A stretch of 64,000 nt of DNA from a bacterium (lineage in GTDB: Bacteria > Bacillota > Clostridia > Lachnospirales > Lachnospiraceae), in NCBI GenBank assembly GCA_023664305.1, contig JAMPFT010000012.1, positions 350 through 64,349 on the forward strand, read 5' to 3'. This document shows, one piece after another, positions 8,589 to 12,239 of the stretch. A program made the position numbers and the translations under genes. How positions within the stretch are numbered: the first letter of the stretch is position 1; every line of letters starts with the position of its first letter. The notes under the pieces were generated by a model. It made no database searches and was not told the DNA's origin. It saw only the letters and a program-made list of their open reading frames with translations.

Positions 8589-8625
8589 ATTTTGTGTTGC
8601 AGGAAATGCTGTGACAAGACAGGAT

Positions 8626-8699
8626 GTGTGTTTAGCTCAGCTGGATAGAGCGTTTGGCTACGGACCAAAAGGTCGGGGGTTCGAATCCTCTAACACACG
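8626..8699 (+). tRNA. tRNA-Arg(ACG)
   Basis: Acceptor gtgtgtt/aacacac, anticodon arm ttggctACGgaccaa, TTCGAAT T-loop. Confidence 0.97.
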
Positions 8700-8830
8700 T
8701 TGCGTTTAGGACGGCGGGAAGCCTTTAAGGTAGGCATTCCCGCCATTTCTTTTGTCTCTTTTCTTCATGGCTTTTACAAACGGACGGCAGAGGAAAAACT
8801 GTAACTTTGCTATGGCAGTCAGTTTGCGAA
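8695..8830 (+). repeat. direct repeat copy 1 (tRNA 3' end, terminator and downstream sequence)
   Basis: Near-identical to 9838-9974; period 1143 bp. Confidence 0.92.
8713..8760 (+). terminator. intrinsic terminator after tRNA-Arg
   Basis: ggcgggaa...ttcccgcc stem followed by atttcttttgtctctttt. Confidence 0.75.
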
Positions 8831-8903
8831 ATTTAAGATAGGTATGGTAAAACGACAGAAAAAATGATATACTGAGTGTGGAGAGGCAGGAAAGGAAGTG
8901 TTT

Positions 8904-9782
8904 ATGGAGGATACCAGAATACAATGGCATTCCGGCTTTGTGTCGGCCATGGATCTGGAGCTGAGGCAGTATAGGGATTCCCTGATATTTGAGCGGGAGT
9001 ATAATCTGAATACAAAACCGTTGGAGATAGATTTGCTGGTGATCAAAAAGAAGCCGTCTACTCAGATTTCCAATGAGATCGGAAGGTTTTTCAGGGGACA
9101 TAATGTCATGGAGTACAAGTCGCCGGAGGATCGCCTGGATATAGACACGTTCTACAAGGTTGGGGCATACGCCAGCCTTTACAAGGCGTATGGCAGGACG
9201 GTAGATGCGGTAAAGGCCGATGATGTGACGGTGTCTATCCTCCGGGAGACAAAGCCGGAGGCGCTTTTCGGATATTTTAAGTCACACGGCTTTACGGTGA
9301 CGAACCCGTTCCGCGGGATATATTATGTGCAAAGCGGAGTCCTGTTTCCGACCCAGATTGTGGTCACGAGGGAGCTGGATAAAGCGGGACACAGTTGGCT
9401 GAGGTTTCTGTCGAACCGCCTGGAGAAGCAGGATGTAGTAGAGATGCTGGAAAACATCGGGCGACTGTCGGAGAAGAGAGACCAGGAGCTTGCGGATTCT
9501 GTCCTGAAGGTAAGCGCGGAAGCGAACAGGCAGGTTGTGAATGAATTGATAGGAGGCAATACTATGTATGAAGCGTTATTGGAGTTTATGGAGCCGCAAA
9601 AAAAGTTGTGGAAAAAGGAAGGGTTAGATGAGGGGATTCAGGGAGCCGTTGATACGCTGAGAGATTTCGGCCATGAAGAGGAAGAAATCAAGACGGCAAT
9701 TATGAAGAGATATGATTTATCCGAGGAGGAAGCGGAAAACTATCTGGGGGTAAGGGGTTCCGGGCAAAAGGTTACAGTATGA
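8904..9782 (+). CDS. PD-(D/E)XK nuclease-like protein (Rpn/PDDEXK_2-like)
   Basis: EIDLLVIKK...NVMEYKS motif; Rpn-like C-terminus EGLDEGIQGAVDTL...YDLSEEEAENYL; alternative GTG start 8898; extended -10 TGaTATACT at 8865-8873. Confidence 0.7.
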   Translation: MEDTRIQWHSGFVSAMDLELRQYRDSLIFEREYNLNTKPLEIDLLVIKKKPSTQISNEIGRFFRGHNVMEYKSPEDRLDIDTFYKVGAYASLYKAYGRTVDAVKADDVTVSILRETKPEALFGYFKSHGFTVTNPFRGIYYVQSGVLFPTQIVVTRELDKAGHSWLRFLSNRLEKQDVVEMLENIGRLSEKRDQELADSVLKVSAEANRQVVNELIGGNTMYEALLEFMEPQKKLWKKEGLDEGIQGAVDTLRDFGHEEEEIKTAIMKRYDLSEEEAENYLGVRGSGQKVTV

Positions 9783-9837
9783 ACGATTGCAGGTAACAAA
9801 TGGTTATCAGTGTGTGGGAAACGCTTTAAGCAGAGTT

Positions 9838-9974
9838 ACACGTTGTTTTATGAGTGGCGGGAAAGCCTTTAAGATAGGAGTTCCCGCCATTTCTTTTGTC
9901 TCTTTTCTTCATGGCTTTTATAAACGGACGGCAGAGGAAAAACTGTAACTTTGCTATGGCGGTTAATTTGCGAA
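9838..9974 (+). repeat. direct repeat copy 2
   Basis: acacgttg...ggcgggaaagcctttaag...ttcccgccatttcttttgtctcttttcttcatggctttta...aactgtaactttgctatggc matches 8695-8830. Confidence 0.92.
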
Positions 9975-9991
9975 CCTCTTTTTGATGAATA

Positions 9992-10020
9992 TTGACTTTG
10001 CCGGACAAAGCCAGTATAAT
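9992..10020 (+). promoter_or_regulatory. SigA promoter, probably giving a leaderless transcript
   Basis: TTGACT-17bp-TATAAT, ATG 8 nt downstream, no SD. Confidence 0.8.
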
Positions 10021-10027
10021 GAGTCTC

Positions 10028-10309
10028 ATGGAACAGAAGAGTGAAAATCTGCGTTTTTGCAGGAAGTGTCTGACAAGGGAACTGGCGGACGGCGGGGAGA
10101 CCTATCAATCGCTGCGAGCGTATATCGACAATCTGGATCCGGATATAAAAGCGTCGGAGCAGCTGTACCGGGAGCGGCTTTCGGCCTGTAAGGAGTGCGA
10201 CCTTCTGTTGGCGGGGATGTGCCGCAGCTGCGGGTGCTATGTGGAACTGCGGGCGGCGATGGCGAAAAACAGGTGTCCTGAAAAAAAATGGCAGGCTGAC
10301 GGGAAGTAG
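10028..10309 (+). CDS. small Cys-rich protein (DUF6171-like)
   Basis: CRKC, CKEC, CRSCGCYV, RCP cysteine pattern. Confidence 0.7.
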   Translation: MEQKSENLRFCRKCLTRELADGGETYQSLRAYIDNLDPDIKASEQLYRERLSACKECDLLLAGMCRSCGCYVELRAAMAKNRCPEKKWQADGK

Positions 10310-10324
10310 GATAAAGGTATCGAA

Positions 10325-10747
10325 ATGGAGAAACAGGAATTTCTTGAAAAGCTTCGCATGGCGTTGAACGGCAGGCTTGCGTCGGATGTGGTTTCCGACA
10401 CGGTCAGCTATTATGAGGATTATATCAACACCGAGGTGCGCATGGGCCGGGAAGAGGAGGAGGTCATGAACTCTCTCGGCGATCCCAGACTGATCGCGCG
10501 GACGATCGTCGAGACTAAGGGACGGCAGAGCGCCAGCGATGTATATTCGGAACAGGAATCGGAGGACAGAGAGATCAAAAGGCGGTATCCCCCCGTGTCT
10601 GTGTTGGTCTGGCTTGCGCTGATTTTTCTTGCGGCAGTGTTGATAATGGTTAGGATGTTCCAGATGATACGGGTTCTCTGGCCTTTTCTCATTGTGATAG
10701 TTGTAGCGGTGTTTTTTGTAAGAATGTTTCGGGACTGGTTCTTTTAG
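10325..10747 (+). CDS. DUF1700 domain membrane protein
   Basis: MEKQEFLEKLR...YYEDYI...GREEEEVMNSLGDPRLIARTI plus C-terminal hydrophobic helices. Confidence 0.8.
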   Translation: MEKQEFLEKLRMALNGRLASDVVSDTVSYYEDYINTEVRMGREEEEVMNSLGDPRLIARTIVETKGRQSASDVYSEQESEDREIKRRYPPVSVLVWLALIFLAAVLIMVRMFQMIRVLWPFLIVIVVAVFFVRMFRDWFF

Positions 10748-10853
10748 CCTGTCGTCGGATCCGTTTTTATGAAATGAAAATTTTTTTGTATAATTTCTTT
10801 TGTTTTTTGCAATACTACTTCCTGTAACCGATAACCAACAGGAGGTATGAATC

Positions 10854-11015
10854 ATGGACAACAATAAGTACAATAACGCAAACAATTCCGAGAACTGCAA
10901 GAACAGCAGCCAGAACAACAGTCAGAACCAGAACAACAACCAGAAGAACAATCAGAACAATAACCAGAGCCAGAACAGCAGCCAGAACAACAACCAGAAG
11001 AATAACAACTACTAA
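10854..11015 (+). CDS. 53-aa Asn/Gln-rich small protein (absent from ORF track)
   Basis: AGGAGGT at 10840-10846, ATG 10854, TAA 11013-11015; MDNNKYNNANNSENCKNSSQNNSQNQNNNQKNNQNNNQSQNSSQNNNQKNNNY; followed by terminator-like hairpin. Confidence 0.8.
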   Translation: MDNNKYNNANNSENCKNSSQNNSQNQNNNQKNNQNNNQSQNSSQNNNQKNNNY

Positions 11016-11030
11016 TACGGCTGCAGTCGG

Positions 11031-11057
11031 TAGGGACGCCTGAGGGTGTCCCTATTT
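11031..11057 (+). terminator. terminator-like hairpin after small N/Q ORF
   Basis: tagggacgcc-tga-gggtgtcccta then ttt. Confidence 0.6.
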
Positions 11058-11078
11058 ACATAATATGTGAGGAGAGCC

Positions 11079-12239
11079 ATGCGCAGATTTGAATTGATCG
11101 CCCCCTGTCATTTTGGAATGGAATCCGTATTGAAGAGAGAGATTACGGATCTCGGATATGATATTACGGAAGTTGCGGACGGACGGGTGACCTTTTTCGG
11201 AGACGAGGAGGCGCTGTGCCGGGCCAATATTTTTCTGAGGACGGCAGAGAGGATCCTGATTAAGATCGGAAGCTTCCGCGCGGAAAGCTTTGAGGAGCTT
11301 TTTCAGGGAACGCGCTCTCTGCCCTGGGAGGAATACATACCGGAGAACGGGAAGTTCTGGGTTGCCAAGGCTGCCAGCGTCAAATCCAGGCTTTTCAGCC
11401 CCTCGGACATTCAGTCGGTCATGAAGAAGGCCATGGTGGAGCGGCTGAAACTAAAATATGGTAAGGAGTGGTTCGCTGAGGACGGGGAGAGTTTTCCGGT
11501 CAGGGTATTTTTGATGAAGGACGAAGTAACGGCGGGCTTAGACAGTACAGGGGTGTCTCTGCACAAGCGGGGCTACCGTAAGCTTACGGCAAAGGCTCCC
11601 ATCGCGGAGAATCTTGCGGCGGCGCTGATTATGTTGACGCCCTGGAATCGGGACAGGATATTGGTGGATCCTTTTTGCGGCAGCGGTACTTTTCCCATCG
11701 AGGCGGCTATGATGGCCGCGGGGATGGCGCCGGGCGCAAACAGAAGCTTTACCGCCGAAGCGTGGCCCCATATTGTGGATAGGAAGCGCTGGTACGATAC
11801 GCTGGACGAGGCTGCCGAGGGAGTGGATTTGACCGTGGATACGGACATCCAGGGGTATGATATTGACGATCACATGGTCAGCATTGCCAGAGAGAACGCA
11901 AGGCTGGCGGGGGTGGACAAGCTGATTCATTTTCAGAGGCGGAGCGTTGCGGAGTTGAGCCATCCGAAAAAATACGGCTTCCTGATCACAAACCCGCCTT
12001 ACGGGGAGAGGCTTCAGGAGAAGCAGGAGCTGCCGGCGCTGTACCGGCTGATCGGAGAGAGATACAGGGCGCTGGATTCCTGGAGTATGTATCTGATCAC
12101 GGCGTATGAAGATGCGGAAAAGGATATCGGCAGACAGGCGGACAGGAACCGGAAGATTTATAACGGGATGATGAAGACCTATTATTATCAGTTTCTGGGG
12201 CCCAGACCGCCGAAAGCGGGGAAGGTGCGGGAGCAATGA
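11079..12239 (+). CDS. THUMP-domain class I SAM-dependent RNA methyltransferase (RlmL/YpsC-like)
   Basis: SLHKRGYR, APIAENLAAA, DPFCGSGT, ITNPPYGER. Confidence 0.9.
   Translation: MRRFELIAPCHFGMESVLKREITDLGYDITEVADGRVTFFGDEEALCRANIFLRTAERILIKIGSFRAESFEELFQGTRSLPWEEYIPENGKFWVAKAASVKSRLFSPSDIQSVMKKAMVERLKLKYGKEWFAEDGESFPVRVFLMKDEVTAGLDSTGVSLHKRGYRKLTAKAPIAENLAAALIMLTPWNRDRILVDPFCGSGTFPIEAAMMAAGMAPGANRSFTAEAWPHIVDRKRWYDTLDEAAEGVDLTVDTDIQGYDIDDHMVSIARENARLAGVDKLIHFQRRSVAELSHPKKYGFLITNPPYGERLQEKQELPALYRLIGERYRALDSWSMYLITAYEDAEKDIGRQADRNRKIYNGMMKTYYYQFLGPRPPKAGKVREQ

Follow-up and report, generated by a model that had tools for sequence, protein, structure and literature searches.

A conserved gene for an asparagine- and glutamine-rich small protein with a predicted forespore-type promoter in gut Lachnospiraceae

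We analyze a 53-codon open reading frame (ORF) that lies between a gene for a HAAS-domain (DUF1700) membrane protein and rlmL, a gene for an RlmL/THUMP-type RNA methyltransferase, in a stretch of 64,000 nucleotides from a Lachnospiraceae bacterium (assembly GCA_023664305.1, contig JAMPFT010000012.1, positions 350 to 64,349 of the forward strand; hereafter, “the window”). The predicted product consists of 26 Asn (49%) and 9 Gln (17%) among its 53 amino acids (aa), or 66% Asn plus Gln, compared with an average of 6.1% in the ordinary genes of the window, and it is the sole ORF of 20-150 aa in the six frames of the window with at least 30% Asn plus Gln. An earlier reading of the same DNA, made from the letters only (hereafter, the original prediction), had described an AGGAGGT ribosome-binding site, an ORF that is about two-thirds Asn and Gln, a downstream hairpin, and the pair GTATA-18-AATACTA upstream, and we find every one of these elements where it had placed them (Table 1). 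Comparison with related loci indicates that the ORF is a real, conserved gene of gut Lachnospiraceae and that, among the non-coding parts of the locus, a sigma-G-like promoter is conserved best. We propose that the product may be a disordered protein of the forespore, comparable in kind to the acid-soluble small proteins of spores (SASPs).

Table 1. Features of the small-gene locus, in window coordinates
Feature	Position	Strand	Remark
-35 element GTATA of predicted forespore (sigma-G class) promoter	10788..10792	+	18-nt spacer to -10
-10 element AATACTA	10811..10817	+	6/7 match to family consensus CATACTA
CTTCCTGT, 5' arm of inverted repeat, between -10 and predicted start	10818..10825	+	complementary to ribosome-binding site
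GTAAC, with the predicted start of transcription between G10824 and A10826	10824..10828	+	start inferred from mapped C. difficile promoters
ACAGGAGG, 3' arm of inverted repeat, ribosome-binding-site region	10838-10845	+	pairs with CTTCCTGT: 8 bp, -9.2 kcal/mol
Shine-Dalgarno sequence AGGAGGT	10840..10846	+	7 nt 5' of ATG
Coding sequence of 53-aa Asn/Gln-rich protein	10854..11015	+	stop codon included; product MDNNKYNNANNSENCKNSSQNNSQNQNNNQKNNQNNNQSQNSSQNNNQKNNNY
Terminator-like hairpin, 11-bp G+C-rich stem, then UUUACAU	11030..11055	+	14 nt past stop codon
TTTACA, conserved at terminator foot	11055..11060	+	in relatives, probable -35 of rlmL promoter
DUF6171 gene	9992-10309		upstream of small ORF
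HAAS-domain membrane protein gene	10325-10747		upstream of small ORF
RlmL/THUMP-type RNA methyltransferase gene (rlmL)	ATG 11079		downstream of small ORF

The comparison set comprised 80 related Lachnospiraceae loci (Acetatifactor, Waltera, Eisenbergiella, and others). The nearest relatives of the RlmL protein, at 74-90% identity, come from Acetatifactor and further Lachnospiraceae, Waltera hominis and Eisenbergiella tayi among them. An ORF of 41-65 aa with at least 35% Asn plus Gln stands directly 5' of rlmL on the same strand in 62 of the 80 loci. Looser criteria and inspection yielded seven further copies (L016, L023, L026, L032, L059, L061, L066) that are divergent, more Ser-rich, or partly truncated, so that an Asn/Gln/Ser/Lys-rich ORF of 41-76 aa is found on the same strand 5' of rlmL in 69 of the 80 loci. 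These orthologues mostly adjoin rlmL and lie 3' of the HAAS gene wherever the flanking DNA includes it; the copy in L066 sits 3.6 kb upstream. Carriers that can be cultured include Acetatifactor aquisgranensis DSM 110981 (L039), Eisenbergiella tayi DSM 26961 (L054), and Waltera hominis (L010). The gene order HAAS-small ORF-rlmL, which the original prediction had proposed to look for across Lachnospiraceae, is thus borne out. Another set of loci from metagenomes (L096, L100, L103, L145, L178, L187, L200) has the same promoter and leader in front of a Ser/Asn/Arg-rich sub-family (MKDYYKDMENSRNSSRNDSQNSS...) whose members measure 50-85 aa and contain internal repeats; here the gene lies 1.3-1.6 kb 5' of rlmL, with other DNA between.

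An open frame carries little weight in DNA of this composition: in about 50 of 62 orthologues, the +1 frame and one of the antisense frames are free of stops as well, and frame openness is therefore uninformative as evidence for coding. Translation of the small ORF is supported by features of other kinds. A GGAGG (or GGAG) sequence is kept at equal spacing 5' of the ATG; the termini are conserved, with Tyr or Phe as the last residue in 47 of 58 members; exactly one Cys is present in 47 of the 58; and Ser is encoded by both of its codon families (AGY 275, TCN 150). Codon usage is also strongly biased, Gln being CAG in 480 of 485 family codons and Asn being AAC in 20 of 26 codons of the window ORF versus 49% in the other window genes (p = 0.0035).

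At the protein level, the family is extreme in composition. Its members have a median length of 53 aa and consist of roughly 41% Asn, 14% Gln, 14% Ser, and 10% Lys, with 4% Asp, 2% Glu, and 1% Arg; in the 58 members, Met accounts for about 2.5% and Pro for 0.1%, the median Asn plus Gln content is 58%, and the median share of polar or charged residues is 90%. Aliphatic residues after Met1 are absent altogether from 41 of the 58. Charged residues make up about 11% of the window protein and about 17% of the family, and the net charge is mostly +2 to +3, i.e., the proteins are slightly basic. AlphaFold2, run on the single window sequence, returned a mean pLDDT of 58, a pTM of 0.17, and no secondary structure; such a low-confidence coil is consistent with disorder, for which it is weak evidence.

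The promoter provides the main clue to when the gene might be expressed. We aligned the orthologous upstream regions on the -10 box. Because the -35 element was not part of the anchoring, its conservation constitutes independent evidence: GNATA occurs 17-18 nt 5' of the -10 in 59 of 60 distinct promoters (GCATA 24, GTATA 18, GAATA 14, GGATA 3), and GNAT[AG] occurs at these offsets in 60 of 61 upstream regions, while none of the other offsets between 8 and 69 has it in more than 2 of the 61. In the -10 box, A2, A4, and T6 were fixed by the anchoring pattern, so that their invariance is by construction, and the last position was limited to A or G; at the remaining positions, the first base is C in 45 of the 60 promoters (A 9, G 5, T 1), position 3 is T in 59, and position 5 is C in 55. 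The B. subtilis sigma-G consensus is GHATR-18-CATXHTA, and with a spacer of 17 or 18 nt allowed, the window sequence GTATA-18-AATACTA fits 11 of the 12 specified positions. The original prediction had claimed a match to the sigma-G consensus; its -35 and spacer stand, and the pair recurs across the orthologues, whereas the -10 of the window itself agrees at only six of seven positions.

The promoter pair also agrees with sigma-F/G promoters mapped experimentally in C. difficile (Table S6, PMC3789822). According to the same study, sigma-G promoters are told apart from sigma-F promoters in that a G upstream of the -10 is not conserved in them, whereas an A on its downstream side is. The terminal A, present in 59 of 60 promoters, is sigma-G-like, although it is a weak discriminator since the anchoring allowed only A or G. 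Overall, the sequence elements point to a promoter of the forespore class for which sigma-G is the best fit; recognition by sigma-F, or by both factors in the way that has been proposed for spoVT of C. difficile, is possible.

The motif is rare elsewhere. In the 64-kb window it was observed once, compared with 0.07 occurrences expected from dinucleotide shuffles, and in its strict form it was found outside the small gene only nine times in 1.46 Mb of related loci, two of these sites preceding divergent family members. We also sought comparator promoters 5' of sporulation genes in these 1.46 Mb and found no other convincing sigma-G-type site. An exact scan of metagenome contigs for the promoter-leader 17-mer CATACTACTCCTGTAAC returned 120 stretches. 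All inspected matches with a proper -35 were followed by a family ORF, mostly beside the HAAS gene and rlmL; the inspected matches with no family ORF also have no -35, lie in unrelated sequence, and look like chance occurrences.

A second candidate promoter was considered and set aside. TATAAT, a perfect sigma-A -10 hexamer, overlaps the GTATA of the window at 10789-10794, but a promoter scan gave it no acceptable -35, and the hexamer is not conserved, 40 of 60 orthologues having not even a 5/6 match at this place. Separately, 20 of 62 orthologous promoters (L001, L002, L004, L005, L008, and others) carry an inverted repeat, AGTAC-NAAA-GTAC(T), at a fixed position 47-49 nt 5' of the -10 and about 20 nt 5' of the -35. 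This repeat, which is absent from the window, may be the binding site of a regulator.

The leader between the promoter and the ATG is itself conserved. GTAAC is invariant in 40 of 40 short-leader orthologues, mostly by construction, as GTAA[CT] was used for selection and anchoring. Sigma-F/G starts mapped in C. difficile lie 6-7 nt past ..ATACTA boxes (Table S6, PMC3789822), and we therefore predict the start at the G, T, or A of GTAAC. The 6-8 bases between the -10 and GTAAC have the family consensus CTCCTG and form the 5' arm of an inverted repeat with the ribosome-binding site. Across the 40 orthologues, 86.7% of cells in this helix are paired, compared with 41-62% with a slid partner. Covariation in the helix is weak (2 compensatory cells only), the energies of own versus swapped arms are mixed, RNAalifold gave no consensus structure for the leader, and Rfam covariance models had no match at E<=1 in 10600-11200. 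In the TTAGGAGG subgroup the 5' arm is altered; by manual reading, the altered arm seems to be paired just 5' of the Shine-Dalgarno sequence in some of these orthologues, and others show little or no hairpin.

Since the predicted start lies 3' of this arm, only RNA that reads through from the HAAS operon would contain the arm, which would there make the ribosome-binding site inaccessible. We offer it as an idea rather than a finding that the CTCCTG arm may act as an anti-Shine-Dalgarno insulator, or may instead be an operator or palindrome. The fold-back inhibition of IS10 offers a precedent, in that a sequence complementary to the ribosome-binding site sits just 5' of the predicted start of the small gene, and the arm would silence only transcripts entering from outside. 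Compared with IS10, the case here is purely hypothetical, with weak covariation and with pairing that falls off the GGAGG core in some orthologues. In the leaders of one clade (L025, L030, L033, L039, L046, L057, L063, L064, L071, L073, L076, L217; leader region, e.g., L217:330-427), an insert of 40-100 nt separates the original CAGGAG from the ATG. It brings with it a second ribosome-binding site (..GTGAGGAAAGAA-ATG) and one or two additional hairpins; at least some members of the clade (e.g., L039, L046, L064) still have the CTCCTG...CAGGAG pair.

Downstream, the 61-nt hairpin stretch has a folding energy of -23.7 kcal/mol (z = -3.6), a stability that none of 200 shuffles reached; owing to its short T-run, the hairpin escaped a simple terminator scan. 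In 58 of 63 orthologues the stop codon has a comparable hairpin behind it (z < -2, median -24 kcal/mol), with stems that differ in sequence and usually end in CCCTATTTACATA. Since this hairpin is conserved 3' of the stop codon, the small gene can be regarded as a self-contained unit of promoter, leader, ORF, and terminator. In L001-L004, TTTACATA-N15-17-TATACT comes next after the terminator and could plausibly serve these relatives as a sigma-A promoter of rlmL. In the window, only 18 nt separate TTTACA from the rlmL start codon and the TATACT box is missing, and rlmL there probably depends on read-through.

The gene has also been lost in places. In four of the 11 negative loci (L012, L028, L047, L060), the terminator hairpin directly abuts the HAAS stop codon, which implies that promoter and ORF were cleanly deleted. 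The gene is missing in 4 of 4 rumen-derived genomes versus 7 of 76 others (Fisher p = 2e-4, with no phylogenetic correction). Many sporulation genes have been reported lost in rumen Lachnospiraceae (PMC11170972), and the absence of the small gene there is suggestive, no more, of a link to sporulation.

Existing databases say little about the family. In Pfam, the window protein had no match at E<=0.01 and the 58 members, at E<=10, had none but six unrelated single matches (E>=0.5); the model for alpha/beta-type, DNA-binding SASPs (PF00269) matched neither the window protein nor any of the 58, and no NCBIfam SASP model matched the window protein or the family members. The composition correction of HMMER penalizes such sequences, so that very weak similarity could stay hidden. 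Homology searches with the peptide and with a profile of the 58 members likewise returned nothing, and such searches are nearly blind to a 53-aa Asn-rich query in a huge database. Exact look-ups of 21 members in a collection of 15 billion proteins were all negative, and we rejected the reading that the family had never been annotated: two orthologues called in NCBI records (L203 1737-1898, 53 aa; L207 1725-1880, 51 aa) are also absent from the collection, which seems to drop short low-complexity proteins. The negative look-ups are therefore uninformative on annotation.

A census of public gene calls near close RlmL homologues is more instructive. Among 23 places, the sense ORF was called in 9 (including 3 of 3 NCBI records), an antisense ORF in 5, and nothing in 9; the antisense calls, of 65-67 aa, take the place of the small gene (L202 1725-1922, L212 425-622, L214-L216 419-622). 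None of the called census products has a Pfam family match. The description of the ORF as unannotated and easily missed thus holds only in part. Low-complexity small genes of this sort are called inconsistently, and composition-corrected homology searches fail on them.

The surroundings in the window are briefly as follows. Beyond rlmL, the downstream genes include an Amidase_3 gene, Ham1/RdgB, and a phosphoesterase. An antisense ORF of 349 aa (9869-10918, minus strand), almost certainly a spurious one, overlaps three genes, those for DUF6171, the HAAS protein, and the small protein. Further upstream, next after a tRNA-Arg(ACG) gene (8625-8700), comes a direct repeat of 115 nt (8716-8830 / 9860-9974, 93% identical) that brackets a 294-aa ORF (8898-9782) with no Pfam or NCBIfam match; the region 8625-9974 looks like a small insertion beside a tRNA gene.

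Our preferred interpretation, to which we assign a probability of about one in two, is that the gene encodes a forespore-expressed, disordered, SASP-like protein that serves as a reserve and/or protectant, by analogy with the gamma-type and minor SASPs. A monocistronic gene would be transcribed from a forespore-type promoter, for which sigma-G fits best, starting at the conserved GTAAC; a strong Shine-Dalgarno sequence would drive translation, and the intrinsic terminator would end the transcript. Its product, a small protein that is specific to the lineage, intrinsically disordered, slightly basic, and very hydrophilic, would be synthesized at a late stage in the forespore and kept in the core of the spore, either or both as a nitrogen-rich reserve of amino acids and as a water-replacing solute that promotes a glass or gel, until its degradation at germination. 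What the analysis shows is the gene with its conservation, its promoter and terminator architecture, its composition, and its lack of any known domain; that the gene depends on sigma-G and that the protein is located in the forespore, is abundant, and serves for storage or protection is what we infer.

SspE, the gamma-type SASP of Bacillales, is thought to be mainly an amino-acid reserve for outgrowth. It resembles the small protein in being small, very hydrophilic, Gln/Asn-rich, and devoid of a predicted fold, and in having a sigma-G-type promoter, a strong ribosome-binding site, and a monocistronic gene. The two share no sequence homology, and the family studied here, which belongs to Lachnospiraceae, is dominated by Asn rather than Gln, contains one conserved Cys, ends in an aromatic residue, and lacks the cleavage motif of the GPR protease: a regular expression of the type E-[FIYL]-[AGQ]-[SNT]-E hit none of the 58 members. 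The comparison with gamma-type SASPs drawn in the original prediction therefore holds for size, basic charge, hydrophilicity, and Asn/Gln content but not for homology or the GPR motif. The minor SASPs of Bacillus (SspH-P, Tlp, CsgA) offer a further parallel as lineage-restricted forespore proteins of 30-80 aa that are under sigma-G and often poorly annotated; their sequences are unrelated, and none is as Asn-extreme as this family.

As the original prediction had stated, SspE is reported absent from clostridia, as are most minor SASPs except for relatives of SspH, SspI, and Tlp (PMC3533761; Galperin 2022 preprint), and the niche of SspE would therefore be unfilled. The small protein family is new, in that there is no database model for it, its composition is extreme, and its clade is said to be without such proteins; small forespore-specific hydrophilic proteins as a kind are already known. 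A known sporulation protein from a clostridial organism with partly similar character is GerG of C. difficile, which is lineage-specific, Asn-rich (~30%), of low complexity, and predicted to be disordered (PMC5241399). However, GerG is far larger (its predicted prion-like region alone spans aa 43-270; PMC5241399), has Met/Pro-rich GMPNNMSNNMNSNM repeats, which contrasts with the scarcity of Met and Pro here, and acts in the incorporation of Csp proteases.

Several observations weigh against this interpretation. Forespore expression is argued from the promoter; the sequencing runs that hold the window (X1, X2) or a human-gut orthologue (X8-X13) are contig sets of flat depth, probably from DNA. 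The promoter is not unequivocally of the sigma-G type, since 43 of 60 promoters have a sigma-F-like G at position -2 of the -10, and the conserved CTCCTG/GTAAC 3' of the -10 goes beyond what a plain sigma-G promoter explains. Given that the family has no GPR motif, its route of degradation would have to differ from that of SASPs. With respect to sporulation of the host, a scan of 26 window proteins revealed none that is specific to this process, the CwlD- and StoA-like matches among them being weak and far under curated cut-offs. An Acetatifactor metagenome-assembled genome was predicted to be non-sporulating in one study (PMC12536801).

Other explanations share some of this evidence. A live alternative, though in our view an unlikely one, is that the protein is a structural one of the forespore, whose Asn/Gln tracts and ..NNNY/F end form reversible polar-zipper (amyloid or gel) assemblies in the core or act as a prion-like switch. 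The 66% Asn/Gln content and the conserved aromatic residues, including the one at the C-terminus, would suit such a role, as would the resemblance of the C-terminus to the GNNQQNY zipper peptide of Sup35. By the usual yardstick for prion domains (about 60 aa or more, with few charges), the Asn/Gln content qualifies, and the family measures 41-76 aa, with ~11% charged residues in the window protein; the short length, the ~17% charged residues of the family, and a net charge of +2 to +3 disfavor aggregation. Prion-like domains, such as those of Sup35 and of clostridial Rho, are also Asn/Gln-rich and disordered with scattered Tyr, whereas the small protein is wholly of low complexity, shorter, Lys-rich, and positively charged. 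Among clostridial proteins, Rho of C. botulinum has an amyloidogenic Asn/Gln-rich domain (PMC4703818), and the Asn-rich repeats of GerG gel spontaneously in vitro, although they are dispensable for GerG function (PMC5241399). A more elaborate version, in which ultra-Asn-rich (40-50%) forespore micro-proteins form a polar-zipper gel or glass as a dormancy matrix and are insulated by the anti-Shine-Dalgarno arm from vegetative read-through, is bolder still and we consider it quite unlikely. Expression in the mother cell from a sigma-E or sigma-K promoter, with the protein a coat, exosporium, or germination component like GerG, appears improbable. The start of the -10 (CATAC..) does resemble that of mother-cell boxes (CATA...), ATA occurs in the -35, and Asn-rich mother-cell sporulation proteins exist in C. 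difficile. Against this, a conserved first G in the -35, a spacer of 17-18 nt, and the heptamer CATACTA fit sigma-G, and the promoter fits neither sigma-E (spacer ~2 nt shorter, CATACAHT) nor sigma-K (AC-17-CATANNNTA); T6 of the -10, having been set by the anchoring pattern, does not discriminate between sigma-G and the mother-cell sigmas. The mother-cell boxes quoted for C. difficile are CATATTAT and CATATAAT (PMC3789822).

Expression in vegetative cells, by sigma-A at the TATAAT hexamer or by read-through from the HAAS gene, would make the product, e.g., a stress or hydration protein unrelated to spores. The perfect hexamer overlapping GTATA speaks for it, as do the failure of a terminator scan to find any terminator between the HAAS gene and the ORF and the missing -10 box of rlmL, which makes read-through across the region likely in this genome. 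We nevertheless regard it as improbable, as the hexamer has no acceptable -35 and is found (at 5/6) in only 20 of 60 orthologues versus 59 of 60 for the GNATA/CATACTA pair, and CTCCTG would pair with the ribosome-binding site in read-through RNA. That the ORF is instead a regulatory leader peptide, on which ribosomes stalled at the 26 Asn and 9 Gln codons control the terminator, rlmL, and the genes beyond, is very improbable. Its codon monotony, the terminator hairpin 14 nt on with an operon behind it, and the lack of a recognizable rlmL promoter in the window are what one would expect of a leader peptide; however, the fold consists of nothing but the terminator and, flanking it, two small hairpins, with no anti-terminator pairing, and 41-76 codons is long for a leader. 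In addition, rlmL, the amidase, Ham1/RdgB, and phosphoesterase genes are unlinked to the supply of Asn or Gln, relatives have a TTTACA-N17-TATACT promoter between terminator and rlmL, and features are conserved at the protein level (the single Cys, the C-terminal aromatic residue, the two Ser codon families). Finally, we find it barely credible that the ORF is low-complexity AAC/CAG-rich DNA that is open by chance. The other open frames and the occasional preference of gene callers for the 65-67-aa antisense ORF are compatible with it, but the Shine-Dalgarno-ATG spacing, the stop after Tyr or Phe, and the promoter and terminator are kept across genera while the repeat diverges.

If the forespore interpretation is true, a 5-6-kDa protein that is half Asn would be the first candidate for the missing gamma/minor SASP class in clostridia. 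Spore-forming Lachnospiraceae are major gut commensals that are transmitted as spores, and the content of their spore core beyond alpha/beta-type SASPs is barely known. The small gene gives a testable handle on nitrogen and amino-acid storage and on protein-based desiccation protection in the spores of anaerobes.

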